Shown piece by piece: positions 16,301-56,673 of a stretch of DNA of 64,000 bases. The translations under genes were made by a program, and so were the position numbers. The notes under the pieces are model-generated. The model worked only from the letters and a program-made list of their open reading frames with translations. It had not been told where the DNA came from and ran no database searches. Source of the DNA: an uncultured Gammaproteobacteria bacterium. GTDB taxonomy: Bacteria; Patescibacteriota; Microgenomatia; Levybacterales; GWA1-39-11. The first letter of the stretch is position 1; each line of letters starts with the position of its first letter. The stretch covers positions 921 to 64,920 of the forward strand of contig CAZAJO010000008.1 of the NCBI GenBank assembly GCA_964485575.1. Direction: 5' to 3'.

Positions 16301-19300
16301 TCCTGTTGTTAATGTCAGTCCGTTTGATGCTGTCAAAAGACCTGCAGAGGTTATTGTTCCAGTGCCGGTTGTAGAAATATTGCCACTAGTTGTTAGATTT
16401 CCAAGCTCATTGATAGTGAGTGTAGCAGATCCCGAGGACTGGATCTCAAGGGACGTATTGGTATTTGCATTGTTATCGTTAATGATAAATGCACTAGCTG
16501 TACCAAGGTTTGTTAGTGTGAGTGAAGTTGTCTGATCCTGACCCAATGTGAATGCCAAATTTCGTCCAGGAGTTGTCGTTATCGTATTTCCTGTATTATA
16601 TGCAGCTTGAAGTCCGAAAGGTGCTCCGTTACAGTACGCAAGGTTGTTACTTACGTCAAGACATAGAGTATTACCATTCTGAGTCTGTAGACCATTTATC
16701 TGTATCCTCTCAGTACCAGTAGTATTGAATACTACATTGTTCCCAGACGAAGGAGCAAAAACAGCAGCGCCTGAAGCGTTGAATGAATTACCTGTTGTTA
16801 TAAATACGTTACTGTTAAATGTTGCAGTGCCCGCAACATCAAGAGTGCTTCCAAGAGTTGTAGCACCGGTTCCGACAGTAAAGGTATTGGATCCGGTAAC
16901 TGAAGTGTTTCCATTGAGTGAAACATTACCAGTTCCTGTTGAGAATGTGCCTGTCCCTGTTTGGGAAATGTTGTTGGTAAATGTGCCGACTCCATTAACT
17001 GTTAGTGCTCCCCCGAGTGTTGTAAGCCCGGTTCCAACAGTTAAAGTGTTCGTACCTGTAACTGATGTATTACCGTTTAGAGTGATTGCGCCAGTTCCAG
17101 TTGTGAATGTGCTAGCACCTACCTGGCTTATGTTGTCATTAAATGTGGATACACCTAAGACATTCAATGTACCGTTGAATGCTGAATTTCCATTGACCGT
17201 AAAGTTACCTGCACCTGAAAGAGGGGATACCACAATATTTCCTGTCGTATTTCCACCAATTGTAAGAGTGTTGTTCTCGGTTGTCTGGATCGAGCGGGGA
17301 GCACCGGCAAGAGTTAGATCTCCAGAGAATGATGCAGTACCAGTTGTTGTTAGATTTGTGAAATTACCCGTCGATGGAGTAGTAGCACCGATGGCAGTGT
17401 TGTTTATGCCAGTAGCAGTGACGGTAAAATTACCGGATCCGATGAGTAAATTATTTCCTCCAAACTGTAGTGATGAAGCAGATAGACCAGACAAATTGAG
17501 TGCTCCTGATGTACCGGTGATATTAACAGCACCAGTCGTTACGCTGAGTCCGTTTGACGCTGTCAATAGCGCATTAGATGTTATAGTGCCTGTTCCGGTA
17601 GTTGCTATATTTCCACTCGTTGTAAGATTTCCAAGCTCGTTTATAGACAAAGTTGCAGATCCCGAAGACTGGATTTCAAGAGATGTATTAGTATTGGCAT
17701 TATTGTCATTGATGATAAATGCTGAAGCAGTACCCAGATTAGTCAGGGTAAGAGATGTTGTCTGATCTTGACCCAATGTAAATGCAAGGTCACGACCCGG
17801 AGTTGTCGTTATCGTGTTTCCGGTGTTGTATGCTGCTTGAAGTCCAAATGGAGCACCGTTACAGTATGCAAGATTATTGCTTACATCCAAACAAAGGGTG
17901 TTCCCATTCTGAGTCTGTAACCCATTGATTTGAATTCTTTCATTTGAGGATGTATTAAATACGACATTATTGCCGGTAGAAGGTGTAAATACAGCTGATC
18001 CTGAAGCATTGAATGAGTTACCAGTTGTTACAAATACGTTGCCATTAAATGTTGCTGTACTAGCAACTGTAAGCGTACTGCCCAACGTTGTCGCACCAGT
18101 TCCGACTGAGAACGTATTGCTTCCTGTGACAGATGTATTTCCATTCAAAGAAACTGTTCCAGTCCCTGTTGAGAATGTACCGGTGCCAACTTGGCTAATA
18201 TTGTTGTTGAATGTTGCAGCCCCTTGTACACTCAAAAGGCCAGTGATGTCGGTGTTACCAGCAATCTGCACAAGTCCAGTCGTATTACCACCGATAGTCA
18301 GAGTGTTAAAGTCGGTCGTCTGAATTGAGCGTGGGGCACCTGCAAGAGTCAGATTCCCAGAGAATGAGGCATTCCCCGTAGTTGTGAGTGTAGTGAAATT
18401 ACCGGTGGAAGGGGTAGTGGCTCCTATTGCAGTATTGTTGATTCCGGTCGCAGTTGTATTGAAGTTTGATGAGGTGAATGTCAGAGCATTTGCACCTGAA
18501 TCAAATGTAGACGCACCAAGTCCAGTAAGAACAATTGCGCCTGAAGAACCAGTTATGTTTACAGCTCCAGCTGTGACTGTAAGGCCATTTGAAGCAGTTA
18601 ATAATCCGTTAGATGTTATTGTTCCCCCTGAGGTTGTGAGGATATTGTCAATAGTTGAAAGAGTTCCATTCTCACTTATTGTAAGCGTAGCCGAACCACT
18701 ACTTTGAATAGACAGTGCATTTTGGATAGAAGCATTGGTGTCATTGATAACAAATGCTGCACTTCCGGTTCCGGCATTGGTGAGCAGGAACTGACGTGAT
18801 GAAAGATCAGCAAGTGTAAAGTCAATATTCCCATGAAGATCGTTAGCAACTATGGTATTTCCTGAATTGTATGCCTGCTGTAGGGTAACATTAAGAGCGT
18901 TTGATGAACAAATAGAAAGCTCGTTTGCCCCATTTCGACAAACAACTGTCGCACCAACGGTTCCTGAAAGATTTGGAATCCTTGTTATAGTATTTAGTAC
19001 TATTTGTCCCGTTCCGTCAGGTGAAAGAGTAAGATCCTCATTTGAATTGGTTGTGATATCTGTTGCAGCACCTGAGAATATGAGCCCTGTAGATCCTATC
19101 GATTTATTTGAAAGAGTCTGGGTCTGATTAGCAAAAATGAATGTGTCATCTGCAGTGAGTGCTGGAATGGTGGCAAATCTTGACGCAGAGGGAGCAAGAG
19201 ATGTGATTGTCGTAGTATTAGTCGTTCCAAGTACTACCTGGTTTGTTGTGTTTGTGAGATTTAGAGACGCAAATGTTGGCGATGATGTCGCAGCGATACT

Positions 19301-41821: not shown

Positions 41822-43864
41822 ATGAATCTTGATACTCCTGTTGGAGAACTCGGACTTACATTCCGACTTAAAAAATCAGCACTTGCTAGACTCAACATTT
41901 TCACTCTAGGAGATCTCCTTTTTCATCTCCCATTCAGGTACGAGGACTTCACAAATGCCGTTACCATTAGAAATCTTAAGATAGGGCAACAATCTGTGAT
42001 AAGAGGAAAGGTTCTTGATATAAAGAACGAGTACACAAAAAAAAGGTTTGTTCTTCAAAAAGCAAAAATCATGGATGACACGGGAACTGTCGAATGCACT
42101 TGGTTCAATCAAACATATATAACCCGAATTATCCATAAAGGTGACGAAATAGGACTTGTCGGAAAGCTTGATTTTTTTGGGAAAAAACCCACCTTTCAAG
42201 TAAAAGAATATGAAGTCATATCCAACGAATCTGGGCTTCATACAACTGGATTTGTACCTGTTTACAATGAAACGAAAGGACTTTCATCCAAATGGTTACG
42301 AAACAGAATAAATGACATCCTCACTAATAATAAAACGACTGTTCAGGAATATTTACCTCTACAAGAATTGAAAAAACTCAACTTCGCCGATTTGTATACT
42401 GCTCTTAAGACTTGTCATTTTCCCCAAGATATAAAATCAGCTGACCTTGCACGAGCGCGACTAGCTTTTGATGAATTATTACTTTCACACTTAGCAGCAA
42501 TTAAAAGAAGACGCGAATGGGAAGAAAAAAATAAAGGAGTACCATTCCAAACTGCAAATTACAAACTGCAAACTACAAAATTTATAAACTCCTTGCCATT
42601 TGAGCTAACAGGTGGACAGAAAAAAGCACTCTCAGATATTGAAAATGATTTACAAAGGGATATACCAATGAATAGACTCTTGGAGGGGGATGTAGGTAGT
42701 GGAAAAACAGTTGTTGCAGCGATTTCGATGTATATAGCACACCTCAATTCTTTCCAGTCAGTACTAATGGCACCCACGGAGATTCTTGCCAACCAACATT
42801 ACGATACTATTTCAAAACTCTTCGAACCCCTAGGTGTTTCAGTCGGCCTCCTCACCGGTTCGTCCAAAACAGGTTCTAAACTCTCAACTCTCAACTCTCA
42901 ATTCTCAATTCTTGTAGGTACTCACGCTCTTATTCAAAAAAATGTGAATTTTGAAAAACTAGGACTTGTTGTCATTGATGAGCAGCAGCGGTTTGGGGTA
43001 GAACAGCGCTCGATCTTACGAGAAAAAGGTACTAACCCTCATTTCTTGACGATGACTGCAACACCTATCCCAAGAACAATTCTCTTGGCTGTATATAAAG
43101 ACCTTGATATTTCATTATTAAATGAATTGCCGAAGGGAAGGCAAAAGATAAAGACTTGGCTTGTCCCCAACAAAAAAAGAGAGAAAGCATACGAATGGAT
43201 AAAAAAACAGATTGTCGAAAGTGAATTTGCCGATCAAGCATTTATTGTTTGTCCATTTATAGAAGATTCTGAAAGCATGGACACCATCAAAGCAGCAAAA
43301 TCAGAGTTTGAAAGGTTGCAGCATGAGGATCTGAAAGGACTCAAGCTTGGATTGTTACATGGAAAAATGACAGGAAAAGAAAAAGATCAGGTGCTTATGG
43401 ACTTTAAGGATAAAAAAACACACGTACTTGTCGCAACACCTGTTGTTGAGGTAGGAATTGATATACCAGGTGCCACAATCATGGTAATTGAGGCCGCCGA
43501 GCGATTTGGACTTTCCCAGCTACACCAGCTCCGAGGTAGGGTAGGCCGGGGTGACAAGCAGTCTTATTGTCTCTTATTCACCGAATCTGAATCTGAGATT
43601 GCTACAAAAAGACTATCATTTATGGAAACTTCCCATAGTGGTTTTGAACTTGCAGAGTTGGATCTAAAACTTCGTGGTGGAGGAGACCTTTTCGGTACAC
43701 GCCAACACGGAGCAGGCGGCATGAAAATTGCAGATTTTTCAAATTTTGAACTTGTTGAAAAAGCAAAAAACGAAGCTGAATATTTGATCAAAGATCTGGA
43801 AAATAATCCGAAGCTTTTAGAAAAAGTGGAAAGTGTCTCGCAAAAATTAGTCCACCCCGACTAG
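41822..43864 (+). CDS. recG: ATP-dependent DNA helicase RecG
   Basis: Wedge/OB N-terminus, GDVGSGKT, DEQQRFG, TATPIPRT and QLRGRVGRG motifs. Confidence 0.93.
   Translation: MNLDTPVGELGLTFRLKKSALARLNIFTLGDLLFHLPFRYEDFTNAVTIRNLKIGQQSVIRGKVLDIKNEYTKKRFVLQKAKIMDDTGTVECTWFNQTYITRIIHKGDEIGLVGKLDFFGKKPTFQVKEYEVISNESGLHTTGFVPVYNETKGLSSKWLRNRINDILTNNKTTVQEYLPLQELKKLNFADLYTALKTCHFPQDIKSADLARARLAFDELLLSHLAAIKRRREWEEKNKGVPFQTANYKLQTTKFINSLPFELTGGQKKALSDIENDLQRDIPMNRLLEGDVGSGKTVVAAISMYIAHLNSFQSVLMAPTEILANQHYDTISKLFEPLGVSVGLLTGSSKTGSKLSTLNSQFSILVGTHALIQKNVNFEKLGLVVIDEQQRFGVEQRSILREKGTNPHFLTMTATPIPRTILLAVYKDLDISLLNELPKGRQKIKTWLVPNKKREKAYEWIKKQIVESEFADQAFIVCPFIEDSESMDTIKAAKSEFERLQHEDLKGLKLGLLHGKMTGKEKDQVLMDFKDKKTHVLVATPVVEVGIDIPGATIMVIEAAERFGLSQLHQLRGRVGRGDKQSYCLLFTESESEIATKRLSFMETSHSGFELAELDLKLRGGGDLFGTRQHGAGGMKIADFSNFELVEKAKNEAEYLIKDLENNPKLLEKVESVSQKLVHPD
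42881..42908 (+). repeat. heptanucleotide array (CTCTCAA x3 + TTCTCAA) inside recG
   Basis: The sequence at 42878-42913 is aaaCTCTCAACTCTCAACTCTCAATTCTCAAttctt and encodes KLSTLNSQFSIL. It is about 80% identical to the pilin leader coding sequence at 51626-51664. Confidence 0.9.
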
Positions 43865-44091: not shown

Positions 44092-44445
44092 ATGAAAACT
44101 GCTCTTGATCCAAGGCATAAGAAGAGACAGGACATTGTTCAACTTCTTTTTTCCTACAGTTTTTTAGAACAAAAAATTTCTGATCCAAAAGCTCGAGAAG
44201 TAATATCAAAAATTCCGGAATTGGATCTACAAATAAATAATATAGCTCCCGAATTCCCAATAGACAAAATCAACAAAGTTGACCTGTCTATTTTACGTCT
44301 GGCTATTTATGAGTTACAATTTGAGAAGAGCACTCCACCGAAAGTAATCATTGATGAAGCAATTGAGTTAGCTAAAGAATTTGGAGGAGAATCGTCTCCA
44401 GGCTTTATAAATGGAGCTCTTGGGAAGTTGTTAAAAAGTCTATGA
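44092..44445 (+). CDS. nusB: transcription antitermination factor NusB
   Basis: DLSILRLAIYEL...VIIDEAIELAKEFGGESSPGFINGALGKL. Confidence 0.85.
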   Translation: MKTALDPRHKKRQDIVQLLFSYSFLEQKISDPKAREVISKIPELDLQINNIAPEFPIDKINKVDLSILRLAIYELQFEKSTPPKVIIDEAIELAKEFGGESSPGFINGALGKLLKSL

Positions 44446-45113
44446 ATGTTAAATTACCAGAATTCAAGGATGAAAAAATCCGAAAACTAGTTTTTACCCA
44501 TAGGTCATACCTTAACGAAAATAAAGAGGTACAAGAGTCAAATGAGCGTCTTGAATTTTTGGGGGATAGTATCCTTTCATTTGTCGTTTCATCCCACATC
44601 TACTCACAACACCCGGACATAAAAGAAGGGGATCTGACTAGTCTCAGATCAGTTCTAACAAATACGCAGACTCTGTATCTCGTCTCAGAAGCTTTAGGAC
44701 TTGGCAATCTACTTACTATGAGTAAAGGGGAGGAAGACGGCGGTGGAAGGACGAACAAGACTATTCTTGCAAATACTTACGAGGCTGTTGTGGGAGGTCT
44801 TTATCTTGATCAAGGGATAGATGCAGCTCGGGAATTCATTACTCAAACTATTATTGAGAATGCTAATGAATTCGTAGGATCTCAAGGACTAAAAGACGCA
44901 AAAAGCATGCTGCAAGAATATATGCAAGAAAAGTTTAAAGTCAGTCCTGATTATAGAATCTTGGATGAGCAAGGACCTGATCACGACAAAAATTATACTT
45001 CAGGCGTATTTTTGAATGGTGAATTGATAGCCAAAGGGGTAGGACATTCAAAACAAGAGGCTGAAAAAGACGCTGCACAAAAGGCTCTTGAGACAATGAA
45101 CGTTTCATATTAA
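44442..45113 (+). CDS. rnc: ribonuclease III
   Basis: Catalytic ERLEFLGDSIL and a C-terminal dsRBD (GPDHDKNYTSGVFLNGELIAKGVGHSKQEAEKDAA). Confidence 0.92.
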   Translation: MNVKLPEFKDEKIRKLVFTHRSYLNENKEVQESNERLEFLGDSILSFVVSSHIYSQHPDIKEGDLTSLRSVLTNTQTLYLVSEALGLGNLLTMSKGEEDGGGRTNKTILANTYEAVVGGLYLDQGIDAAREFITQTIIENANEFVGSQGLKDAKSMLQEYMQEKFKVSPDYRILDEQGPDHDKNYTSGVFLNGELIAKGVGHSKQEAEKDAAQKALETMNVSY

Positions 45114-46366: not shown

Positions 46367-47019
46367 CGCCAACTCTTAAGAGTGTTAAGTTGAGATTCTT
46401 CTGCTTTCGTTAAGTTTTTAACAGCAGTAGTATCGGCGTTTAAGGGTCTTATCGTTACCGGTTTATAATAGAAATTAACGTCAAGTCTTGCATCAGATTT
46501 TGCCAAATCAATAGCCTTTATATCCACCAACGGAATACTTTTATACAATTCTTGAGCAAATTTGCGTAGATTAACATTTTCTCCTGAAGCATTCACTAGA
46601 ATATTAAGAAATGGTATGCCATTCACTACTTTAGCAGTAGGCTGCACCTTCTTATCAGTTTCTGAAGCATAAATTCCACCTACTTTAATACTAAAACCAC
46701 CGAGCTTTACTCCTGCTCTTTCTGCTGCCTTATTGAGCTCAGTGTATATCAAAACTACGTCTTTTTGTAAAGGGAGCGCTGTAGTTACTACTTCATAATT
46801 CTCGTCAACGACTGCTTGCGGAAGAGAATTGAGTAGGGTTACGCTTTGGTCTTTTGCATCGACTGTCGAAGATTTTGTGGTCAATAATGATTGCACGTCT
46901 TGGATGTCGGACCACTGGGGCATTACAATCCGGAAAAACACGAAAAAGGAAGCAAAGCCAAATATCAAAGGCAACAATTGTTTCTTTCTTTTTCTGTAAA
47001 TCAATTCTAACTCGTGCAT
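46363..47019 (-). CDS. pilO: PilO-like type IV pilus assembly protein
   Basis: N-terminal TM plus a periplasmic domain, positioned after pilM-pilN. Called on context only. Confidence 0.5.
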   Translation of the reverse strand: MHELELIYRKRKKQLLPLIFGFASFFVFFRIVMPQWSDIQDVQSLLTTKSSTVDAKDQSVTLLNSLPQAVVDENYEVVTTALPLQKDVVLIYTELNKAAERAGVKLGGFSIKVGGIYASETDKKVQPTAKVVNGIPFLNILVNASGENVNLRKFAQELYKSIPLVDIKAIDLAKSDARLDVNFYYKPVTIRPLNADTTAVKNLTKAEESQLNTLKSWR

Positions 47020-47022
47020 ATA

Positions 47023-47559
47023 TTATTTGAATGTTATCCCGAATGTCAGACTGTATCTTAAGGTCTTTGGATTTAAGCCAAACGATCTCATATCGATTTT
47101 CTTGATCCCTCTTTTTTTGTCTGACGCAAGCTGGGCAATTTTACTTTCAATAAGATCATTGAGAGAAGAGAGGCTTTCAGATTCCAATGTAACCTGCATC
47201 TCCGTATCTGTACCATTGATTGCATCGACTTCTGAATCTTGTGGTATAACACCGGATATTGAATCAAGTCTTGCGACAACTGGAGATCTCTTGCTCAAAA
47301 CTTTTTGTACATCTATTATTCTGCTTTTTATTTCTATCAACTTGTCTTTCTTATCTTGCATAGCAAGTAGTTGAGCATTAAGTTTTTGCTCCTTTTGATC
47401 AAGACTGTCGTAAACTCCCCTCAGAACAAGTCTGTAGACGATTAGTCCCAATGAGATAACAACCGTGAAGCAAAAAACTCCGGCAGTGATATAGAAGAAT
47501 TTCTTTAAAGCGTTATCTACACGTTTACGACCTAATGAGAGATTGATTCCTTGTTTCAT
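47023..47559 (-). CDS. pilN: PilN-like type IV pilus assembly protein
   Basis: Short cytoplasmic INLS... N-terminus, a TM helix and a coiled coil, directly after pilM. Confidence 0.55.
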   Translation of the reverse strand: MKQGINLSLGRKRVDNALKKFFYITAGVFCFTVVISLGLIVYRLVLRGVYDSLDQKEQKLNAQLLAMQDKKDKLIEIKSRIIDVQKVLSKRSPVVARLDSISGVIPQDSEVDAINGTDTEMQVTLESESLSSLNDLIESKIAQLASDKKRGIKKIDMRSFGLNPKTLRYSLTFGITFK

Positions 47560-47564
47560 AGAGG

Positions 47565-48590
47565 CTAAATTGCGTCCTTTAATGCAAGTCCTGAGACTAC
47601 ATTAAAACTCAATGAGTCGGCACCGATTTCCGGAGGAACATTTTTCATATCATAAACCTGAAATGAACTTCCGAGAACTACCTGAATATTTAGTTGGTTT
47701 GTAAAATATATGTCAACACCAGGCAACTGAGCAGAGCCACCTGAAAGGATCATCTGGGTTATCGGTTGATTTGGATTCTTTTCTTTATACAATAACATTG
47801 TCTTTCTTATGTCTCCCAATATAGACTCCAAAATAGGGAAGAGTGATTTTCCTATTTTACCCTCAAATGCATCTTTATTGAGACCATAGGCTTTTTTGTA
47901 TGAATCTGCCTGGGTAACATCAATACCAAGATCCAATGATATTGCACGTGTTATCGCAATACCTCCCTTATCAACCGTAAATACCATTATCAGTTCCCCA
48001 TTCTCAACAACAGCAATGTTTGTGGTTGCTGCCCCCATGTGAACAATCATATTAGAGGTACCGGTATTTACGAGTGGAAAGATGGATCTATGGACTGAGA
48101 GCATTTCAGTCTCAATAGTAGAAGGTACTAGACCAAGTTCATCAAGTACTGTTTCGTATTTCTTGATGAGCGAAAGTGACGCAGCTACCAGAAGTATTCT
48201 AGATGTTTTGTTTTGCGCAGTTGAAGGACTAAGTACTTGCCAATCAGTCTTGACTTGATCCAATGGAAGAGGAATGTATTGCTCCATTTCATATTTAAGA
48301 GCCGCTGCCAATTCCTTTTCGGAAAGCGCAGGCATCTCAATAATTTTTGTATATACCTGGCTTTCAGGCAGAGCAACATTTACCTCTTTCTGTTTTATAT
48401 TTGCACTTGCAATGATTTGCTTTACTGCTTCAGCAAACTTATGAAGATCCTCTGGGGATTCGGACATGATTCCCTTTTGTGGAGCTGGACCCAGGCCCAT
48501 CGACTCTATAGCAAAAGAGTTTCCTCCTTTTTTAAGAGAAAGCGCCTTGATAGACGTCGTTCCAATGTCTAACCCAAATGTATCGCTCAT
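47565..48590 (-). CDS. pilM: type IV pilus assembly ATPase-fold protein PilM
   Basis: Actin-like FGLDIGTTSIKAL and ...VHMGAATTNIAV... motifs. Confidence 0.85.
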   Translation of the reverse strand: MSDTFGLDIGTTSIKALSLKKGGNSFAIESMGLGPAPQKGIMSESPEDLHKFAEAVKQIIASANIKQKEVNVALPESQVYTKIIEMPALSEKELAAALKYEMEQYIPLPLDQVKTDWQVLSPSTAQNKTSRILLVAASLSLIKKYETVLDELGLVPSTIETEMLSVHRSIFPLVNTGTSNMIVHMGAATTNIAVVENGELIMVFTVDKGGIAITRAISLDLGIDVTQADSYKKAYGLNKDAFEGKIGKSLFPILESILGDIRKTMLLYKEKNPNQPITQMILSGGSAQLPGVDIYFTNQLNIQVVLGSSFQVYDMKNVPPEIGADSLSFNVVSGLALKDAI

Positions 48591-49468
48591 TGTGACAGTA
48601 ATGAATAGGGAAATATCTCAAGTGGCAGTTGGGGATATGACTGGAAATAAACAACTTTTCTGACCGTGTCCCCGGATGTACCCGTTGAAGTTACCACGGA
48701 TCCTTGAGCTGGAAAGACTACCCCTGAAGACTGAAAACCAACAAGACTTGAGTTAAATATTGGGATGACTTTCATGATAAGACCATTTGATAGACTTGCT
48801 CCTCCAAAAGTGAGTGAGGCTGAATTTCTAAATGTTACTCCTTTTAGAGTGAATGGCCCACCCGAGGTGGTGCCAGTTGCCGCACCGGAAATTCTTGAAC
48901 ATCCGGATGCTTCATACACATTTTTTTGAATTGTAGGATTGGCAACCGTTCCTCTCAACAAAACTACTTCGATTGCAGGAGCGACACTGTCACCACTTGA
49001 AGCTGAACAAGAAGTCTGTGACACATTGCCCCAATATAGAGTGATACCCACGGGATTTCCTGCTCCCATTTGATTGAGGAAAAGGTTTGCTGGATTTGCT
49101 GAATAATCAGATAGCCATACATCTGCTCCTGAAGCTTGATCAACCTCCTGTCCATTGTTTATGACAATAGCAGTTCCATTGTCTGTCGTAAAAGTAGTTG
49201 AGAAAGAGGCGTTATTATCTAGATTTATTGGGGAATTTAAAGTACCGATACCACTTTGTCTCTCGATTGTTTGTTGAATGCCTGATTCAGCAGCCTGAAA
49301 AGCTCTTTGAGATTCTTCATTTTGCTTTGAAAGTTTTAATTCAGTTACAACCCGGGCTGCAATGGATAATCCAACTGTTAATGCAACGATCATGGTCAAT
49401 ACCACAATGAGGAGGATTTGTCCTTTCTGACCACCACGAATAATCCCATTTCTAAAAGACATAGACAT
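48587..49468 (-). CDS. PilX-N-domain minor pilin-like protein
   Basis: A hydrophobic N-terminus GQILLIVVLTMIVALTVGLSIA is followed by SQRAFQAAESGIQ (the PilX_N A.yaAEaG signature). Confidence 0.65.
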   Translation of the reverse strand: MSMSFRNGIIRGGQKGQILLIVVLTMIVALTVGLSIAARVVTELKLSKQNEESQRAFQAAESGIQQTIERQSGIGTLNSPINLDNNASFSTTFTTDNGTAIVINNGQEVDQASGADVWLSDYSANPANLFLNQMGAGNPVGITLYWGNVSQTSCSASSGDSVAPAIEVVLLRGTVANPTIQKNVYEASGCSRISGAATGTTSGGPFTLKGVTFRNSASLTFGGASLSNGLIMKVIPIFNSSLVGFQSSGVVFPAQGSVVTSTGTSGDTVRKVVYFQSYPQLPLEIFPYSLLSQ

Positions 49469-49472
49469 ATCA

Positions 49473-49502
49473 ATAATACGGTCAAAGCGGAGACGATGTC
49501 AA
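49473..49502 (-). promoter_or_regulatory. internal promoter candidate
   Basis: TTGACA (49502-497) - N18 - TATTAT (49478-73) - N4 - ATG 49468 (N10 to the second ATG). Confidence 0.3.
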
Positions 49503-49556
49503 GCTACGACCTGCTATTCAGGTTGCGCTACGACCTGCTATGCAGGTTGCGCTATG
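49503..49556. repeat. 24-nt tandem direct repeat (2.2 copies), each copy hairpin-forming
   Basis: GCTACGACCTGCTATTCAGGTTGC (49503-26) and GCTACGACCTGCTATGCAGGTTGC (49527-50) are 23/24 identical, followed by a partial GCTATGGAC. Copy 2 contains the palindrome ACCTGC-TAT-GCAGGT. The array overlaps the stop codon at 49552-54. Confidence 0.85.
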
Positions 49557-50136
49557 GACTAAAGTTTCTCATCGTAACTGATGTATTGAATGGACTATTT
49601 GCTGTATTTTCACTTGTAGTATTTGCTCTTTGTGAAACGGTGAAAGATACGCTTATGATAGGCTGAGAATAAGGGTTTGCATTATTTTGTAAACACGAAA
49701 AAGTACAGCTAGCAGGATCAACTTTTACTGAATTATTGTCTATTAGATAGGTAGTTATAGAACCACTGGAGGAAGCTATGCTTGCTGATTGAATATCGCA
49801 AGAAAACGCTACGAGTGAGTTATCGGATTGCTTGAATTCGATTGACGTGCCTGACTTAAGAGTAGTGCAATCTGAGATGGCAACACCTCCAACTTTTGTC
49901 ACTGACTCAGCCAATCTTGCAGTATTTGAAATAATTGAAAGAGCATAATTACCATTTTGAGAAACATCATTTGTTACTTTAGTCTTATTACCACCACGAA
50001 GAGTAGAGTAGAGAATACCGACTATTAGCCCCGACACAATCACAATGATACTTGTAACAGCCAAAAGCTCAACAAGAGTGTAGCCCTTTTGGCCATTTTT
50101 TAGTTTGTAGTTTATAGTTTTTAGTTTGGTAATCAT
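49552..50136 (-). CDS. minor pilin / pseudopilin (prepilin-type N-terminus)
   Basis: ...NGQKG|YTLVELLAVTSIIVIVSGLIVGIL. Confidence 0.7.
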   Translation of the reverse strand: MITKLKTINYKLKNGQKGYTLVELLAVTSIIVIVSGLIVGILYSTLRGGNKTKVTNDVSQNGNYALSIISNTARLAESVTKVGGVAISDCTTLKSGTSIEFKQSDNSLVAFSCDIQSASIASSSGSITTYLIDNNSVKVDPASCTFSCLQNNANPYSQPIISVSFTVSQRANTTSENTANSPFNTSVTMRNFSP

Positions 50137-50615
50137 GGATTACTGGCAGGATACGCATATGGCATACATGCAATAAGTTCTGACTTGTGACAAAATGTGT
50201 TTGTCGAGGGACATTTCGTCGAAATCCATTTGACTCGTACAGTTACTTTTATTTCAGTGTTTGGACATTGCCCCCCACTTGGGGAAAAAACAACTGTCCT
50301 GTTAAAAGTTGTTCCCAGGTTGATTCCAGTATCGCTACAAGATGTAGTTGTTAAAGTATTGTTATCTTCATCAATACAGTATGTTGCATTTTGGTTAAAT
50401 GAAGCAAAGGTTGAAAGATCGTTTTTCTGTATGTTCCTTACGAATTCGATTCCTTGTTGCGCATACTTATTGGCTTGGTTTTGTTTTTTTATGAAAGTAG
50501 AATTATATAGTCCATTCACAATCACAATAGCTATAGCTGTAATGATAAGAAGGATAGTCATAAGCGCAACTATCGCTTCAATAATTGTTTGACCCCTTTG
50601 AAGTTTGTGTTTCAT
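50133..50615 (-). CDS. minor pilin / pseudopilin
   Basis: MKHKLQRG|QTIIEAIVALMTILLIITAIAIV. ATG 50615 lies 1 nt after the upstream stop; the track start 50678 is a TTG. Confidence 0.6.
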   Translation of the reverse strand: MKHKLQRGQTIIEAIVALMTILLIITAIAIVIVNGLYNSTFIKKQNQANKYAQQGIEFVRNIQKNDLSTFASFNQNATYCIDEDNNTLTTTSCSDTGINLGTTFNRTVVFSPSGGQCPNTEIKVTVRVKWISTKCPSTNTFCHKSELIACMPYAYPASNP

Positions 50616-50616
50616 A

Positions 50617-51168
50617 TCATTGAACAGAAATATTTCCACCGGAATCAATAGTGATAGTTTTTGTCTGACCGTATCCAATCACTACGATATTACATGGAGC
50701 CCCACCAACCGTTGACGACAAAGGACTAAAATGAACCTGAGTACAAGTAGTTGCAGCAGAAAAAGTTAAATTGTTGGGTAAAACAAGAAGTCTTATGCGT
50801 GAGGGGCTTACATTCTCGCACAATTGATTGAGTTCCATCTGAGAATTACCAAGCATATTTATTGTGTATCCCCCAAGAGAATCAGAACCACAAGAGATGG
50901 TATTGCCATTGAGGTCTTGATTGGTCTTGACTGCAGATAGTGCGTTGAATCGAGCCTGACTAACAAGAAGTTTTATATTATTGCCGGTTTGATTGACTTG
51001 TTGGGAGTGACTATACGTAACGAAAGACACAATTCCTATGCCAGAAAGTACAGCAATTATGCTAAACACAACAAGAAGCTCAATTAGGGTGAAACCACGA
51101 GAATTTGAGAGTTGAGATTTGAGAATTAAGAATTTTAAATTTGTGATCTTCTGGGTAAAACATTTCAT
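50617..51168 (-). CDS. pilin-like protein (GspH/FimT-like), long leader
   Basis: ...LKFLILKSQLSNSRG|FTLIELLVVFSIIAVLSGIGIV. The leader is encoded by a heptamer array. Confidence 0.75.
   Translation of the reverse strand: MKCFTQKITNLKFLILKSQLSNSRGFTLIELLVVFSIIAVLSGIGIVSFVTYSHSQQVNQTGNNIKLLVSQARFNALSAVKTNQDLNGNTISCGSDSLGGYTINMLGNSQMELNQLCENVSPSRIRLLVLPNNLTFSAATTCTQVHFSPLSSTVGGAPCNIVVIGYGQTKTITIDSGGNISVQ
51104..51136 (-). repeat. heptamer array (NTCTCAA on the coding strand) in the pilin leader
   Basis: The + strand reads tttgagaGTTGAGATTTGAGAATTAAGAatttt. Confidence 0.85.
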
Positions 51169-51176
51169 ACTTAAAT

Positions 51177-51205
51177 ATCAATTCTCAATTTTCAATTATC
51201 AATTT
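51177..51205. repeat. intergenic heptamer array, inverted relative to the leader arrays
   Basis: The + strand reads ATCAATT CTCAATT TTCAATT ATCAATT, directly after the pilin stop (51206-08). Confidence 0.85.
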
Positions 51206-51667
51206 TTATGGGCTGGTTAATTTGAAAGGTACATTCGGGGAAGTACAAACGTTAGCGTCGGCTTGATCAGTATCCTTCTCAGAGTCATTTGAATTCTCAA
51301 GGCAACCAAATAGTGTGTAGGTAGATCCGTCAACTGCTGCAGTATATATATAAGGGTCACCCGTAACTGGATCACATGGTACTTTCTGCATATATACGGT
51401 CCCATTTACTGAAATCCCATTACCACAAGTAGATAGATTTGCAGTAGCAGGGTAGTCACCATTATCTGCTCTGTAAAGCTCTAAAGCAGACTGCATTTGG
51501 TACATATTTGACTTTCTTTGCCCGTCTCTTCCTCGTTGTCTTGCACCAATGAAATTTGCTGTCAAAAGAGCTGTGAGAATAGCAATTATAGAGATTGAAA
51601 CCAATAATTCGATGAGCGTGAAACCTCGAGGGTTTGAGAGTTGAGATTTGAGAGTTGAGAATTTCAT
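51206..51667 (-). CDS. type IV pilin / T2SS-G-like pilin
   Basis: MKFSTLKSQLSNPRG|FTLIELLVSISIIAILTALLTANFIGARQRGRDGQRKS. Confidence 0.85.
   Translation of the reverse strand: MKFSTLKSQLSNPRGFTLIELLVSISIIAILTALLTANFIGARQRGRDGQRKSNMYQMQSALELYRADNGDYPATANLSTCGNGISVNGTVYMQKVPCDPVTGDPYIYTAAVDGSTYTLFGCLENSNDSEKDTDQADANVCTSPNVPFKLTSP
51634..51663 (-). repeat. heptamer array (TCTCAAC TCTCAAA x2) in the pilin leader
   Basis: The coding strand reads atgaaatTCTCAACTCTCAAATCTCAACTCTCAAAccc. Confidence 0.9.
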
Positions 51668-52029
51668 GATTGATTCTTAAGTTTATTAATTATAGAAACC
51701 AGTATGGCTACAATCTCATTTGATTCACTTTTAAGTTTAGATAGTTCTTTTGCCGAAAGCAAGCCTGATACCTCAATGACTTCAAGCCAATAGTATGTCT
51801 CCTTAGCTTCTCGAAGAGAAATGAGCATTTTTTGCCTAAAATCCTTAGGTGATGATGCATCTTGCGCCTCGTAAACATTCGCCCCAATTGAAGTAGCAGA
51901 CCTAACAATTTGAGATGCTAACGCGTAACCTGCAGGAGTTTTTGGAAACATATTAGACAACCTTATAGTATCTGAAGAAAAAGAAATCAAACGTTGCATA
52001 AATTCTTTTTTCCATTGATTTCTGTCCAT
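51664..52029 (-). CDS. four-helix-bundle protein (23S rRNA intervening-sequence protein / Avd family)
   Basis: IVRSATSIGANVYEAQDASSPKDFRQKMLISLREAKETYYWLEV matches the family signature (IGANIAEG...S..DF...L.IA.GS..E). ATGA overlap with the pilin start. Confidence 0.75.
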   Translation of the reverse strand: MDRNQWKKEFMQRLISFSSDTIRLSNMFPKTPAGYALASQIVRSATSIGANVYEAQDASSPKDFRQKMLISLREAKETYYWLEVIEVSGLLSAKELSKLKSESNEIVAILVSIINKLKNQS

Positions 52030-52050
52030 AATGTGAACATTTTTAAATTT

Positions 52051-52070
52051 TCAAATCTCAATTCTCAATT
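52051..52070. repeat. intergenic heptamer array, inverted copy of the pilin-leader sequence
   Basis: The + strand TCAAATCTCAATTCTCAA (52051-68) matches the reverse complement of 51634-51651 at 17/18 positions. Confidence 0.9.
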
Positions 52071-52717
52071 CATGGCGATATATTTGGGCTTGTAACTCCA
52101 TAGGTGCAGGGCACATTTGTTCCGCAGGTTATATCTGTTCCGCCAATTCCGGTCCCAATCGTACTTTGGCAAGCACTTCCGCCATTGCAAGCCTGAGGAT
52201 CATTGCCACCTCTGTCTAAAGATGCATAAAGTGCATACGACTGCCCGGTAGAATCTGACCAGTACGCATAATTCTTAGCAACCTTTGGATCTATTGGGAG
52301 TACATCCATATATGGACTCCATGTGTGTCCCCATGCAACTGCGGTACCGCTTGTCCCATCTGTGGATATCTCATTTATGTTTGCAGCTTGGTAGGCTGGA
52401 GGATATCTATGGAAGTCGTTATAATAGACCTCAAGTGCTCTTTGGACCTGTGCAAGGTCTCCTTTTCTTTTTGAGTCCTGGCTTTTATTGAACTGCTCAA
52501 CTGGATTGACAACGGCAAGGATGAGTGCGGACAAAACTCCAAGAACACCGATGACCGTAATTAGCTCGATGAGAGTAAATCCACCACTTACCCCTACAAG
52601 AAGTTGTTGACGAAGATATTGAGGATTTGTTCTCCCCAAAAAAGGGATATCACGACTGAAACAACCAAAAAAGGTCCGAACGGAATTGTGCTTCCAAAAA
52701 AGTGCAATTTGCGCCAT
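52070..52717 (-). CDS. pilin-like protein, start uncertain
   Basis: ...LLVGVSGG|FTLIELITVIGVLGVLSALILAVV. The only in-frame starts are ATG 52717 (46-aa leader) and TTG 52639 (20-aa leader), and both overlap the 3' end of pilD. Confidence 0.7.
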   Translation of the reverse strand: MAQIALFWKHNSVRTFFGCFSRDIPFLGRTNPQYLRQQLLVGVSGGFTLIELITVIGVLGVLSALILAVVNPVEQFNKSQDSKRKGDLAQVQRALEVYYNDFHRYPPAYQAANINEISTDGTSGTAVAWGHTWSPYMDVLPIDPKVAKNYAYWSDSTGQSYALYASLDRGGNDPQACNGGSACQSTIGTGIGGTDITCGTNVPCTYGVTSPNISP

Positions 52718-53355
52718 ACAACCAGTATGATTGAGACCAAAGCACCTGTCAAGAAAGCCATATATAAGGCTACGATGACTGATGGAAATCCCAATAAAAA
52801 CCCTAATACGAAGGAAAATTTAACATCCCCAAACCCCATTCCCCTCCCCTTTGTAATTGCGAAAAGTATAAGAAAAAACAGCAGTGCACCGATTCCTGCA
52901 TATAGATGATTTGTTAGCGGCACATGCTTCTCGTAAAGATAAAAGATGCTTGCTATCGTTGACACTATGACTAATAAGTCAGGTATAATCCCGTATTCGA
53001 TATCGGCAAAAAAGATTCCTATAAGACTCCACAATATCACAGCTAAAAACAAGGCAGAAAACATAGTAATTGTCTGCGCCATAAATAGTGTGGCAACAAG
53101 CGTAAATGTTATACCAGTCAAAACTTCAACAATGATGAGCCTTCGCGGAATTTTTTTCTTACAAAATCTACATTTTCCACCCAAGATAAGATAAGAGACT
53201 ATAGGGATAAGATCTTGTGGGGAGAGTATTCTTTTACAGTGTTCACAGTACGATCTTCCACCAACAATACCACGCCCCGTTGAAAGTCTATCAATAACAA
53301 CGTTTAGAAAACTCCCCAAGACGCTACCAATTATAAAAGAGAGTAGTAGAACCAT
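52594..53355 (-). CDS. pilD: prepilin peptidase (A24 family)
   Basis: Zn-finger CEHC...CRFC. The catalytic Asp lies in GFGDVKF. Multiple TM helices. Confidence 0.9.
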   Translation of the reverse strand: MVLLLSFIIGSVLGSFLNVVIDRLSTGRGIVGGRSYCEHCKRILSPQDLIPIVSYLILGGKCRFCKKKIPRRLIIVEVLTGITFTLVATLFMAQTITMFSALFLAVILWSLIGIFFADIEYGIIPDLLVIVSTIASIFYLYEKHVPLTNHLYAGIGALLFFLILFAITKGRGMGFGDVKFSFVLGFLLGFPSVIVALYMAFLTGALVSIILVVWRKLHFFGSTIPFGPFLVVSVVISLFWGEQILNIFVNNFL

Positions 53356-53368
53356 TCCTTAAGTATAC

Positions 53369-55393
53369 CTATTTTTGTACTTCTTTTGTTATGGCTTTCT
53401 TTATATCTTCATTGAAAATACTCTTGTAGTATTTAGCAACCTCATCTACCTTCTTTTTATCTTTGTAACAATTTAATGCGTTGAAGTACCAGAAATAATA
53501 ATAACTTTTCTCGATAGGGTACAGATCTATTGCTTTTTTCATATCCGTATCTGCATCCGAGCAGTTACCGTATTGGCTTTCAACTCTGGATTTGCCTGCA
53601 TATCCTTTAGAAAACTCAGGATCAATAACAGTTGCGTATTTATAGTATTTAGCCGCGGCGCTAAAATCAGCATACTCACTAAAAAAAACATCCCCAATTT
53701 TGACGAATGCATCAGCATAATATGTAGGAATGTCTGACGTTGTAAGATTCCTCTCACTTGGTAGTAGTTTTGCCCGTTCTGGGATGTCGATACTGGCAAA
53801 ATCGTGTGGGAACATCCTCCTATAATCTTCAACGGAGGGTAAATTTTTTCTTTCAATAAGTTGATAACCTATTCCCCTCGGTAACCACATAAATTCGCTA
53901 TTGTTGAGTTTGATCTGCGTTGTCGCAAAAACGGGACGACTCTTTGATATTTTTTCGATAGTCCTAAAAAAGGCGTACAGATCGTCTTTTTTGTATTCTT
54001 TCTTTGATTGCTCAAAGAGAGGTGTGAAATAGTCATTTCTTATGGCAAAATTTCCTATTTCAACAAGCTCTATGTCTGGCCTTGTCTTCTTCACAAAGTG
54101 CATGTACCACGTATTGAATGATTTCGTATCCCCCTCTGCAACAAGTATTGATCCTTTAGGTAAATTTCTCATGAAATTGGCTCCAAATTCATTTCCAATC
54201 GACATGCTTGAGAGGTTTGTTTTTTGATAATTTTTAGTGAACTGCAGTAGTGGAATCAATATAAAAACCGCCAAAAGAATCATTGAATATATCTTTTTTG
54301 AAAAGACTCTTGCAAAAAAAGTGTAGATAAATAGTAATCCCCACGGAAAAAATATGACCAACATGACCTCAGAAAGAAGATAAAAACGTTCAACTGTTGC
54401 AAGAACAAAATTGTTGGTTATAGGAAAAGCTGCATAAAGGATAAATACTGGACCTAGAAGTAGGATAGACCCCATCATCAAAAACCCTAAATATTTTTCT
54501 TTACGAATCATGTTATATATTCCAAGTAGTGAAATAATTACAACTGGTATAGTTAATGAAGAACTGAGTGATTCAAAATAGTTTTTCAATAGGAAACTCC
54601 TCAATTCAAATGCAGGTCTAGGAAATATTCCTGCTGAAAATGTACCATAATCTCTTCTTAATACAAGGTTGATGAAATTCGGAAGGTTTTTTGCGTCATC
54701 CCAGTTTACGACCGGATTTCTAACAGCTGCTATTGGGATGTAAAGATATGGAAGCAGCCCTAAAAGAAAAACAGGGGGTAACCATAGTAATTTTTTGCGG
54801 AAAGAAAAAATTTCCCGTCTTTTGTTTATAGCCAAAAAGACAACTAGTGGGACCAGCATGAGAATAGTCATGTGGTTTGCCAACCCAAGGCCCAAAAATA
54901 ATACTGTCAAAGCTAAGTTTTTAAATCTCACCTTCTTATAAAAAATGAAAATATTGTAAACCATGCAAAGGGAAAGAAATATATTGAGCATAAAAACCTC
55001 AGGTATTTCGCTAAAAAGCCAGAAATGATAGGAAAATGCCAGCGCTCCGATACTTATGATTTGGATCATCTTATCCGATATGAAGATTTTTGTGATTTTC
55101 CAAAAAACGAAAAGTGAACCTATCGCTGCAAAAGCAGAGATCAGTCCAACTTTAGTAACAGGCTCAAGATTTAGTTGCAAATGACTTAAAGCAAAACCAA
55201 GCACTGTAAAGAGTGGGTATCCCGGAGGGTGAGCAACACCACCAACTACAGCAGCAGTAACGAGATCTCCAACATCCCCACCATAAATATCACTTGTCAA
55301 TCCAGATATATAGAAAAATAAGATTATGGACAGAAAAATAGAGACGAAGAAGGAAAAAAAGCCGATTGTTATTTTTATTCCACCAATAGACAT
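53369..55393 (-). CDS. DUF2723/TMEM260-like GT-C glycosyltransferase with C-terminal TPR repeats
   Basis: GGDVGDLVTAAVVGGVAHPPGYPLFTVLG signature, about 11 TM helices, and a TPR-like C-terminus (AAKYYKYATVIDPEF...). Confidence 0.7.
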   Translation of the reverse strand: MSIGGIKITIGFFSFFVSIFLSIILFFYISGLTSDIYGGDVGDLVTAAVVGGVAHPPGYPLFTVLGFALSHLQLNLEPVTKVGLISAFAAIGSLFVFWKITKIFISDKMIQIISIGALAFSYHFWLFSEIPEVFMLNIFLSLCMVYNIFIFYKKVRFKNLALTVLFLGLGLANHMTILMLVPLVVFLAINKRREIFSFRKKLLWLPPVFLLGLLPYLYIPIAAVRNPVVNWDDAKNLPNFINLVLRRDYGTFSAGIFPRPAFELRSFLLKNYFESLSSSLTIPVVIISLLGIYNMIRKEKYLGFLMMGSILLLGPVFILYAAFPITNNFVLATVERFYLLSEVMLVIFFPWGLLFIYTFFARVFSKKIYSMILLAVFILIPLLQFTKNYQKTNLSSMSIGNEFGANFMRNLPKGSILVAEGDTKSFNTWYMHFVKKTRPDIELVEIGNFAIRNDYFTPLFEQSKKEYKKDDLYAFFRTIEKISKSRPVFATTQIKLNNSEFMWLPRGIGYQLIERKNLPSVEDYRRMFPHDFASIDIPERAKLLPSERNLTTSDIPTYYADAFVKIGDVFFSEYADFSAAAKYYKYATVIDPEFSKGYAGKSRVESQYGNCSDADTDMKKAIDLYPIEKSYYYFWYFNALNCYKDKKKVDEVAKYYKSIFNEDIKKAITKEVQK

Positions 55394-55443
55394 TATTGAA
55401 AGTTATATCAAAAAAAAGAAATTAAGAGAAGACTAAAGATGAA

Positions 55444-56010
55444 TTACTGTGTACACCAGTAGCAGTTGGCATTATTAGGAGCTACTGGATTGTTTGGACC
55501 TCCTACGCAAGCTGCATTTGAGCTTGGAGTAGTACCATCCTGGTTATACTTTGTATTAATATCACGCTCTTGAGATTTTGATTTTGGCTGATAGCACATT
55601 GTTATATTCCCACCTGTCTCACTAGCATATAGATTGGCAAGTATTCCGGTAGCTGTTGTGAAGGCTGGTTTGAGTTCTCCCTCAGTTATAAGAACTCCGA
55701 GACATGTTGTGAACATAGCAGAATCGGTAAATAAATTGACTGCTGACAACGTATTGTTGCCTACGCCCATACATTCAGCACCTGCTGCCCCCCAAGGCAT
55801 AGCACTATGAGTAGTGTAGTAGCGAATGTTTGCATTCAGAAACTCAACCGCAGTATTTTTAGAATTTGAATCTTGTGCTTTATTCAACTGCTCGAAAGGG
55901 TCAATAGTCGCAACCAAAGCAGCAGCGAGGATACCGAGAATACCAATAACAACGAGAAGCTCGATGAGGGTGAAACCTTTCTGTAACTGTCGGACAGGTG
56001 ACAATTTCAT
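55444..56010 (-). CDS. type IV pilin (major-pilin candidate)
   Basis: MKLSPVRQLQKG|FTLIELLVVIGILGILAAALVATIDP. It has its own strong promoter and C-terminal Cys pairs. Confidence 0.85.
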   Translation of the reverse strand: MKLSPVRQLQKGFTLIELLVVIGILGILAAALVATIDPFEQLNKAQDSNSKNTAVEFLNANIRYYTTHSAMPWGAAGAECMGVGNNTLSAVNLFTDSAMFTTCLGVLITEGELKPAFTTATGILANLYASETGGNITMCYQPKSKSQERDINTKYNQDGTTPSSNAACVGGPNNPVAPNNANCYWCTQ

Positions 56011-56019
56011 ATTAAGTCA

Positions 56020-56049
56020 ATCATAACCACAATGAATTTCCCTTGTCAA
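56020..56049 (-). promoter_or_regulatory. promoter candidate (major pilin)
   Basis: TTGACA (56049-44, inside the palindrome CCCTTGTCAAGGG) - N18 - TATGAT (56025-20) - N9 - ATG 56010. Confidence 0.5.
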
Positions 56050-56064
56050 GGGGTACTTTCACGC

Positions 56065-56673
56065 TTAAAGGAAGATAGATTCAATGGCAATTTTTCTATT
56101 TATGTTATTGGTTTTGGTAAGACTCAAAAGAGGTAAAGCTTTCTTACAATAATGAAAATAACTGACTACGTTTTCATCATCGATGCTTTCAAGAAGTAGT
56201 GTCCTTAAAACAGGGATAATTTCATCTAAAGAATAATCCTCTAGAAAAATTGCTGCATCATCTATCGTTCCCCAATCTCCTTTTGTCTTGCATATGTTCC
56301 TTATCAGGCTAGGGAGCTCTTTAATAATAGTTGTTTCAAATCCCACTCTGACAACCGAACATCTGGAACGAATCGTCGGCAACAAATAATCTTCGTTCAT
56401 TGATACAAAAATGAAATAAATATTCTCATTTGCTTCTTCAATATTTTTAAGAAGAGCATTCTGTGCCTCAATAGTAAGAGTACCTCTAAAAACGATCAGT
56501 TTTTTTGTTGGCGTTTTGTAGTTGAGGGATTTTTTTATATTTCTTGCATCTTCAATCTTGATGATTTCATCAATATATTCAGTCTCGAAAGGGGAGAAGA
56601 GATTTTCTATCTGGTATCTCTCTAAATATTCATCCGTAAGTCTTTTGTCACCGATTAATAAGATGCTATTCAT
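56065..56673 (-). CDS. holB: DNA polymerase III delta'-like subunit (no Walker A)
   Basis: EAQNALLKNIEE and LPTIRSRC motifs. Confidence 0.7.
   Translation of the reverse strand: MNSILLIGDKRLTDEYLERYQIENLFSPFETEYIDEIIKIEDARNIKKSLNYKTPTKKLIVFRGTLTIEAQNALLKNIEEANENIYFIFVSMNEDYLLPTIRSRCSVVRVGFETTIIKELPSLIRNICKTKGDWGTIDDAAIFLEDYSLDEIIPVLRTLLLESIDDENVVSYFHYCKKALPLLSLTKTNNINRKIAIESIFL

Follow-up and report, generated by a model that had tools for sequence, protein, structure and literature searches.

This analysis concerns arrays of tandem heptanucleotides in a type IV pilus operon carried by a 64,000-nucleotide stretch (the window) of contig CAZAJO010000008.1, with close homologues in Levybacteria/Microgenomates (Patescibacteria) assemblies. 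Type IV pili are central to host attachment and DNA uptake in Patescibacteria. All genes around the arrays belong to this operon on the minus strand, and a gene list in low-to-high window coordinates runs opposite to the direction of transcription. In the transcribed order, the genes that matter most here are a pilin-like gene (#1; T2SSG/N_methyl, 52070 to ~52639), with a probable TTG start at 52637-52639 overlapping the 3′ end of pilD and a TGA stop (52070-52072) that abuts the first array; a gene for a four-helix-bundle (4HB) protein of 121 aa (51664-52029); prepilin gene #2 (51206-51667; 153 aa, stop 51206-51208); and prepilin-like gene #3 (50617-51168; 183 aa, start codon 51166-51168), which has a leader of 25 residues. 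The leaders MKFSTLKSQLSNPRG (prepilin #2) and MKCFTQKITNLKFLILKSQLSNSRG, both continuing as FTLIELL, each gave a match to N_methyl PF07963, and the hallmarks of type IV prepilins were present, namely a leader ending in Gly, the F/Y-T-L-I/V-E motif with Glu at +5, and a nearby PilD peptidase, which would remove the array-encoded leaders.

Heptamer arrays and inverted-repeat cassettes

Direct reading of the DNA bears out where an initial sequence-only reading had placed the arrays, that is, in the leaders of two pilins, with complements right after the stops at 51206-51208 and 52070-52072. The plus strand at 51634-51660 is TTGAGAG TTGAGAT TTGAGAG TTGAGA, or TCTCAAC TCTCAAA TCTCAAC TCTCAAA on the coding strand, a variant of the TCTCAAN array occupies 51104-51136, and complementary TTGAGAN-type arrays lie at 51176-51205 and 52045-52069. 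The 9-mers that had been quoted as pairing are likewise correct, with TTGAGAATT at both 51119-51127 and 51655-51663 and AATTCTCAA at 51180-51188. Tandem Repeats Finder (TRF) reported period-7 arrays at 51105-51124, 51176-51204, 51634-51660, and 52046-52071, with others at 50097-50128 and, in recG, at 42544-42579 and 42875-42912; the coding arrays have 2.9-3.9 copies, 84-92% matches, and a period-14 structure. Allowing up to two mismatches, TCTCAANTCTCAA occurred 28 times in the window compared with 11.4 ± 3.4 times after shuffling (0 of 100 shuffles reached 28), and exact matches were concentrated in the pilin-region arrays and recG. A DNA-uptake sequence was rejected, the arrays not being scattered through the window. 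The two orientations are not equivalent for translation: TTGAGAN holds a TGA that the 7-nt period carries through all three frames, and it is for this reason that TTGAGAN is confined to the spacer after the preceding gene, whereas TCTCAAN is free of stops in every frame and is found in leaders, recG, and pilD. The same point about orientation was made by MacGregor for TAACTGA repeats (PMC4679880).

The gene following the 52045-52069 array had been assumed to be a pilin, but it is the PF05635 four-helix-bundle gene at 51664-52029, and this enclosed gene, overlooked at first, changes what the structure is. Its product matched PF05635 (E=5.1e-23), TIGR02436 (E=1.9e-28), and PDB 2RLD (E=3.5e-17), the PF05635/TIGR02436 family bearing the name “23S rRNA intervening sequence protein” (S23p), and its stop overlaps the prepilin #2 start as ATGA. 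The upstream (5′) arm of this cassette (52045-52069, minus strand; mRNA sense ATTGAGA ATTGAGA TTTGAAA ATTT) has TGA in all frames, while the downstream (3′) arm (51633-51661, minus strand; TTCTCAA CTCTCAA ATCTCAA CTCTCAA A) is translated as residues 3-12 (FSTLKSQLSN) of the prepilin #2 leader. Together they are inverted repeats that enclose the 4HB gene over a span of 437 nt (52069 to 51633), with 21 of 24 positions pairing and an arm score of 15, which was attained in none of 2000 shuffles (maximum 13) and at 3 of 3000 random window positions. When the RNA of 51615-52085 was folded, the minimum free energy and centroid structures both paired the two arrays across the entire 4HB gene.

A second cassette, between prepilins #2 and #3, contains no open reading frame (ORF) of its own. 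Its upstream arm (51176-51205, minus strand; mRNA sense AAATTGA TAATTGA AAATTGA GAATTGA TA) starts 0-2 nt past the prepilin #2 stop, its downstream arm (51098-51132, minus strand; TTCTTAA TTCTCAA ATCTCAA CTCTCAA ATTCTCG) is translated as the distal part of the prepilin #3 leader, and from 51205 to 51098 the arms enclose only ~43 nt, including the prepilin #3 start codon. The arm score was 11 (reached in 17 of 2000 shuffles and at 1 of 3000 random positions), and folding of 51085-51215 paired the arrays around the start codon (z=-2.9), as the sequence-only reading had anticipated. Other heptamers occupy the same site in relatives: in L001, a syntenic relative with ~80-85% nucleotide identity, as well as in L007 and L089, TTTATAG/CTGATAG lies upstream and AAACTAC in the leader, and in L002 these are CTAWTAG and CTACYAG. 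Before another pilin, the upstream array of L089, L090, and L092 is ATTAGTA, and the leader array is AATCACT/ATTCACT. The matched pairs of such ORF-less cassettes are thus TTTATAG with CTACAAA, CTAWTAG with CTACYAG, and ATTAGTA with AATCACT, and in a 12 × 12 matrix of duplex energies pairing was strong inside a heptamer family and weak across families, two cassettes without leader arrays acting as negative controls. The coding arm has CTACAAA or CTATTCA where the perfect complement (CTATAAA, CTAATCA) would be an in-frame stop.

Some arrays have no partner. The leader of the pilin-like gene at 49552-50136 (minus strand), MITKLKTINYKLKNGQKG followed by YTLVELL, contains a CAAACTA-type coding array (AAACTAN x4, 50097-50127, minus strand), and a partner arm is missing there because the gene overlaps its upstream neighbor and leaves no room. 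Two in-frame arrays lie in recG on the plus strand, one of CAAACTG/CAAATTA type at 42547-42580, in the linker before the helicase motifs, and one of (TCTCAAC)x5 at 42875-42911, encoding SKLSTLNSQFSIL before the VGTHAL motif; the two heptamer families of the pilin leaders recur in them, and their position and length are conserved in L001. Translated arrays within pilD (TTTCCAA, TTATCAT, AATGGTC, TTAATCA) were found at L095:2862-2957 and L100:2210-2394, adding ~21 residues to the L095 PilD relative to that of the window. L001 also has array insertions that the window lacks, at 3340-3420, 15968-15991, and 17776-17824, in the pilB-pilT spacer, between a KH-domain gene and trmD, and in the 5′ untranslated region (UTR) of the L32 gene after recG. 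The arrays, then, are also a repeat class of general occurrence in these genomes, like the STRR (short tandemly repeated repetitive) and TAACTGA repeats elsewhere.

Recurrence of the module and covariation of its arms

The module of array, 4HB gene, and inverted array used as a prepilin leader was found in six distinct Patescibacteria contexts. The 4HB homologues (49-78% identity) all lie directly upstream of, and overlap, a prepilin gene, whether before pilin #2 (L099, L101-106, L107-110), before a different pilin (L111-114), or after pilC in Saccharimonadales (L115-117), and in every case an array follows the preceding stop codon, the complementary array encodes the leader, and the layout includes the ATGA overlap. 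The two arms shift together, as TTGAGA with TCTCAA (window, L101, L111), TTGAAA with TTTCAA (L107), GTGAGA with TCTCAC (L099), and ATGAGA with TCTCAT (L115), so that the first position of the unit is seen as T/A, G/C, and A/T. When three units of each arm were aligned across six cassettes, with a manually set register and with non-independence among the units of one arm, 87% of cells paired compared with 80% in shuffles (0 of 500 as high), 7 of 21 pairs were altered on both sides, and sliding the partner by 1-3 columns reduced pairing to 33-52%. This comparison shows the cassettes to be a conserved module, with arms that stay complementary as their sequence changes. The earlier suggestion that upstream and leader arrays pair is supported by matched arms that co-vary, seen in six homologous 4HB cassettes and across five or more heptamer families; for putative pairing in the mRNA, the mismatch spectrum goes against simple selection on that strand.

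Presence of the module differs between close relatives. L001 is without the 4HB gene and the TCTCAA arrays before pilin #2, and its homology with the window ends at the pilin #1 stop codon and picks up again at the pilin #2 Gly-1 codon. Recombination or shuffling among pilin genes, also raised in the sequence-only reading, is compatible with these mosaic 5′ ends, in that leaders and upstream sequence can be unrelated where the mature pilins are 96-97% identical. A metagenome search with the mature pilin domain gave only 7 loci.

Outside Patescibacteria, a tblastn search of plasmids with the 4HB protein gave homologues mainly in Nostocales, and ten genes were inspected. Heptamer arrays flank eight of them (cyanobacteria, Chloroflexota, Treponema), with clear inverted pairs in seven, the pairs measuring 15-38 nt and the best-preserved arms 31-33 nt; no flanking heptamer arrays were seen at the remaining two, from Bernardetia and Pseudanabaena. 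The unit is TAATTCG in Nostoc flagelliforme (32-nt perfect arms) and Dolichospermum, AATCGTA in Planktothrix, AAGTCGG in N. punctiforme, AATTCAA in Aulosira, AAATCTA in both Gloeocapsa (L124) and the Chloroflexota Chlorohelix (L122), and CTCTCCG in Treponema, where the arrangement is more complex and arm complementarity weaker. As a control, 50 kb of the N. flagelliforme plasmid with 60 coding sequences was scored, in which two 4HB genes had scores of 31 and 32, the next best being 12 and the median 7; the second of these 4HB paralogues, met in the control region, has CAATTCG with its other arm changed to match. Period 7 itself was prominent in TRF output, with 54 rows per 151 kb of Levybacteria-type loci versus 1-2 rows for periods 8, 10, and 11, and was not enriched in 430 kb of unrelated pilin loci, a control made up mostly of distant loci from outside the candidate phyla radiation among the matches listed for the generic GFTLIELLV pattern.

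The surroundings of the 4HB genes vary. With AAATCTA arms, the gene has a DUF1156 gene on one side and a Swt1-family HEPN gene on the other in both L122 and L124, i.e. in two phyla, and other copies adjoin cas1 (Pseudanabaena, L127) and xisH/xisI (N. punctiforme, L121). A search with the peptides of (TCTCAAC)n/(AATCTCA)n returned “hypothetical proteins” of 35-98 aa with QLSTLNS or KSQISNL repeats from Microcoleus, Tychonema, Flavobacterium, and others, which are likely spurious ORFs over long heptamer arrays and do not amount to a pilin census.

Proposed pairing of the arms and competing explanations

The reading put forward here, which we hold to be evenly poised between right and wrong, is that the arrays are arms of ~4 tandem heptamers in inverted-repeat cassettes that pair in the transcript, and are not frameshift switches. 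Arm-arm pairing, whether at the RNA or the DNA level, is the best-supported mechanism, and pairing of nucleic acid is preferred over a common protein site because several unrelated matched heptamer families occur in one operon. The TCTCAAN arm has been taken over as coding sequence of the prepilin leader, which is tolerant of sequence, and in the polycistronic transcript the arms would form a long stem from 0-9 nt past the upstream stop to 2-4 codons before the PilD cleavage site. Such a stem would enclose the initiation region, and translation or stability of the downstream pilin would depend on its being opened or cut. A ribosome terminating upstream could open the stem at its base and make the downstream start accessible, i.e. 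translational coupling; alternatively, by analogy with 23S rRNA intervening sequences (IVSs) and the hmw1A 5′-UTR, the stem might be cut by RNase III, for which there is a gene at 44442-45113 on the plus strand (its L001 orthologue has Ribonuclease_3 and dsrm domains). The length of the stem would then depend on how many units the non-coding arm has.

Several observations weigh against pairing in the mRNA, in addition to the hand-set register and non-independent units of the covariation alignment. Folding z-scores are modest (-2.9, -1.1, -0.95). Among the non-Watson-Crick positions of the mRNA strand in the best ungapped arm alignments, 19 are A·C and 2 are G·U, and in 10 of 10 cassettes pairing is better on the antisense strand, an outcome opposite to that expected under selection for an mRNA helix. 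RNase III cutting in the stem would part pilin #2 from its start codon. No rRNA or other family match was obtained in an Rfam search of 47000-56500. Partnerless arrays occur in leaders of overlapping genes (window 50097-50127; L095, L097, L100, L101) and inside the coding sequence of recG and pilD, from which it follows that arrays also arise or persist without pairing. Two things would each account for the A·C bias, namely strand-biased G-to-A decay in the non-coding arm, equivalent to C-to-T on the plus strand, which has a mildly positive cumulative GC skew in the window, or a structure on the other DNA strand. We speculate that the periodic mismatches may reflect avoidance of cleavage at pilin #2.

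A possible but less probable explanation is that the arrays form a selfish or neutral DNA palindrome, being the inverted termini of a foldback-like element, mobile now or in the past, in which the 4HB gene is cargo and the ORF-less copies resemble miniature inverted-repeat transposable elements (MITEs); slippage and template switching would keep the arms alike and the leader arm would merely be tolerated. This would suit the absence of the 4HB cassette from L001, L002, and L091, the array insertions found only in L001, the position of the cassette before different pilin paralogues in different lineages, and the arrays within recG and pilD, and neither the excess of A·C over G·U nor the stronger antisense pairing would require selection on RNA. 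A transposon origin has also been considered in the IVS literature (PMC4990558). However, there is no transposase, target-site duplications are missing at the indel boundaries, the window lacks a second identical copy, the arms always begin 0-9 nt past a stop codon, and persistence of the module with compensatory arm changes across lineages whose 4HB proteins share just 49-76% identity is hard to obtain without selection or continuous homogenization. A DNA inversion switch was rejected, orientation being identical in every relative.

It is unlikely that the arrays are instead protein-binding sites, at which a pentameric 4HB protein would bind DNA or single-stranded RNA with one unit per subunit, controlling itself and the adjacent pilin, the arms matching each other in order to fit one protein. 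Arms have ~4-5 units, the best-preserved copies measuring 31-33 nt, five chains are present in each of the PDB depositions of the relatives 2RLD and 2GSC, the related Avd forms a pentameric barrel with positive charge and acts together with nucleic acid (PMC6182149), and 4HB genes co-occur with heptamer arrays in four phyla. Set against this, the operon of L089 has three matched families (TCTCAA, CTACAAA, AATCACT) but one 4HB gene, 4HB proteins that are 69-75% identical are accompanied by unrelated heptamers (AAGTCGG vs TAATTCG), and the two arms are different sequences on a single strand. Determination of heptamer identity by the 4HB protein sequence was not supported, and single-strand binding of the HutP/TRAP kind was rejected as a general explanation, the arms differing on one strand and several families coexisting.

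A transcriptional element is very improbable. The TTGAGA/TTGAAA/TTGATA arrays would on this account be -35-like hexamers or heptad operators for internal pilin promoters, and weak sigma-70-like matches do use arrays as a -35 (52068-52039 and 51202-51174; 9 of 12 positions), in an organism with genes that seem to have very short 5′-UTRs behind TTGACA promoters (56049, 49502). Yet a promoter and terminator scan gave matches that were not above chance (34 promoter-like matches vs 27.9 ± 5.6), and the heptamers ATTAGTA and TTTATAG found elsewhere do not resemble a -35. Operators of the omega repressor of pSM19035 are heptads in direct and inverted orientation. An omega-type regulon has one heptad consensus, and the several heptad families in one operon, including the three unrelated matched families of L089, cannot serve one regulator. 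An antisense-RNA hairpin was also rejected, its putative antisense promoter falling inside one arm.

Length variation bears on the remaining proposal, one of the options of the sequence-only reading, that slippage of 7 or 14 nt in the coding array switches a pilin ON or OFF. Coding arrays never differed in length among relatives: the pilin #2 coding array is equally long in the window, L007, and L089, the pilin #3 leader has 25 codons in both the window and L090, the CAAACTA leader array has the same length in the window, L001, and L002, and the two recG arrays differ between the window and L001 by substitutions only; five assemblies (L101-L105) were identical. The non-coding arms do vary, with 5, 6, and 7 units in L007, L089, and L001, and with a 32-nt indel that separates L107/L108/L110 from L109 with no other difference over 853 nt. 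Length change confined to non-coding arms is slippage-type instability where no frameshift is possible. A contingency locus would be in keeping with a unit length that is not a multiple of three, with arrays in the first 10-25 codons of surface-structure genes, and with whole-unit slippage between strains, but tracts of ~4 imperfect units with 90% matches contrast with at least 11 units in hmw (PMC12721329), the coding arrays are without length change, and ON/OFF switching is implausible for the same arrays in recG and pilD. Neither a long homogeneous tract nor frameshifting tract-length differences between strains were found, and a classical ON/OFF contingency locus is disfavored, and can hardly be the explanation, because the tracts are short and imperfect and the arms that change in length are the non-coding ones.

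Relation to known elements and other features of the operon

In size and architecture, the 437-nt unit matches an S23p-containing IVS of 23S rRNA. The Coxiella 23S rRNA IVS, of 428-444 nt, contains an S23p ORF, and RNase III cuts its terminal stem of 28 bp (PMC4990558). Common to the IVSs of Coxiella burnetii and Leptospira and to the window element are a PF05635 ORF of ~120 aa in the loop, complementary termini with a stem of ~25-30 bp, a total of ~430-440 nt, and RNase III in the host. The IVS, however, sits in helix 45 of 23S rRNA, whereas the window element lies between two pilin cistrons of a protein-coding type IV pilus operon, its arms consist of heptamers in tandem, translation of the 3′ arm gives a prepilin leader, and the ORF stop overlaps the next start. 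At hmw1A/hmw2A of Haemophilus influenzae, as here, a heptamer simple sequence repeat (SSR) with a strain-variable number of units lies upstream of a surface-adhesion gene and makes one arm of a long hairpin, which in the hmw1A 5′-UTR is cut by RNase III (PMC12721329), the effector likewise proposed here. In the window, too, a heptamer array forms the arm of a predicted hairpin and unit number varies between strains, but hmw has at least 11 units compared with 3.5-7 here, and here the partner arm is a coding heptamer array and several families are present.

The TAACTGA repeats of Beggiatoaceae, Cyanobacteria, and Bacteroidetes (PMC4679880) and the cyanobacterial STRR repeats are 2-6 tandem heptamers located just upstream of start codons that lack a Shine-Dalgarno sequence; as in the window, their forward orientation is stop-rich and intergenic and the reverse is translatable and found inside ORFs. 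Unlike them, the window arrays are matched inverted pairs around a start codon or 4HB gene, and the heptamers differ; a link to PF05635 is not mentioned in PMC4679880. Foldback and MITE-type elements share inverted termini of variable-number tandem units, a loop that is short or gene-bearing, and presence that differs between close relatives, but no transposase, target-site duplication, or sign of recent transposition was found here. The CTCTT repeat of Neisseria opa is similar in being a non-multiple of three located where a surface-protein gene encodes its signal or leader, and differs in that the tracts here are short and imperfect, with no frameshifting length variants among relatives.

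Heptamer repeats near start codons, heptamer-SSR hairpins, and S23p IVSs are each already known singly. A full-text literature search, with most subscription journals outside its scope, found no published account of a PF05635 gene bracketed by inverted heptamer arrays, of such an element in Patescibacteria pilus operons, of an arm serving as a prepilin leader, or of recurrence in cyanobacteria, Chloroflexota, and Treponema. To our knowledge, no function has been known for bacterial heptanucleotide repeats since their first description. The findings explain the long, repeat-like leaders that are frequent in Patescibacteria pilins (e.g. KSKIKNQKSK) as translated inverted-repeat arms, with consequences for gene calling, signal-peptide prediction, and ideas of pilin regulation, and they tie bacterial heptanucleotide repeats to rRNA intervening sequences and to the S23p/Avd-like protein family, all three of which are poorly understood. 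A bolder proposal, which we advance as doubtful, is that PF05635 genes and heptanucleotide arrays are two halves of one widespread, undescribed element with ~4.5 heptamers per arm. If so, the 4HB protein would act on the arrays or their stem, with roughly one arm unit per subunit of the pentamer; 23S rRNA IVSs, many cyanobacterial STRR-type repeats, and the odd Patescibacteria pilin leaders would be one element; and in candidate-phyla bacteria this element would have been domesticated to gate pilin synthesis.

The rest of the operon, also on the minus strand, comprises genes for PilM (47565-48590), a PilX-like protein (48587-49468), a further pilin-like protein (50133-50678), the prepilin peptidase PilD (A24; 52594-53355), and a further pilin, the major one (55444-56010), with a TMEM260-like gene listed between the last two. 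Strong promoters, TTGACA-N18-TATGAT (55444-56049) and TTGACA-N18-TATTAT (49468-49502), lie a few bases 5′ of the ATG and serve the major pilin and the PilX-like gene, respectively, and the spacing between promoter and ATG at 56049 and 49502 suggests near-leaderless mRNAs in this organism. Upstream of the second promoter and directly after the stop of the 49552-50136 gene, a 24-nt unit, GCAACCTGCATAGCAGGTCGTAGC, is repeated 2.2 times (49503-49554); this repeat is not present in L001.

Leader repeats of other kinds were also encountered. In the pilin #3 leader of L101:3345-3470 and L106:1264-1420, a 33-nt in-frame repeat (SAGFSVLKGRE; 2 copies in L101, 3 in L106) duplicates a pseudo-cleavage site, and four assemblies break there, while comparable duplicated KKKQTGFTFS leaders occur in P0010, P0012, and P0015. 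In L099 (2727-3590, 1311-1934, 5627-6274), a prepilin cleavage site is preceded by a GIY-YIG nuclease domain fused to it in frame, and a GFYPAPxK leader module is common to three pilin genes of one operon. Pilin 5′ ends seem to collect selfish or repeated modules. Apart from the pilus genes, a giant protein gene takes up 40% of the window, an ORF of >8,700 codons (2-26194, minus strand) that runs off the window start.

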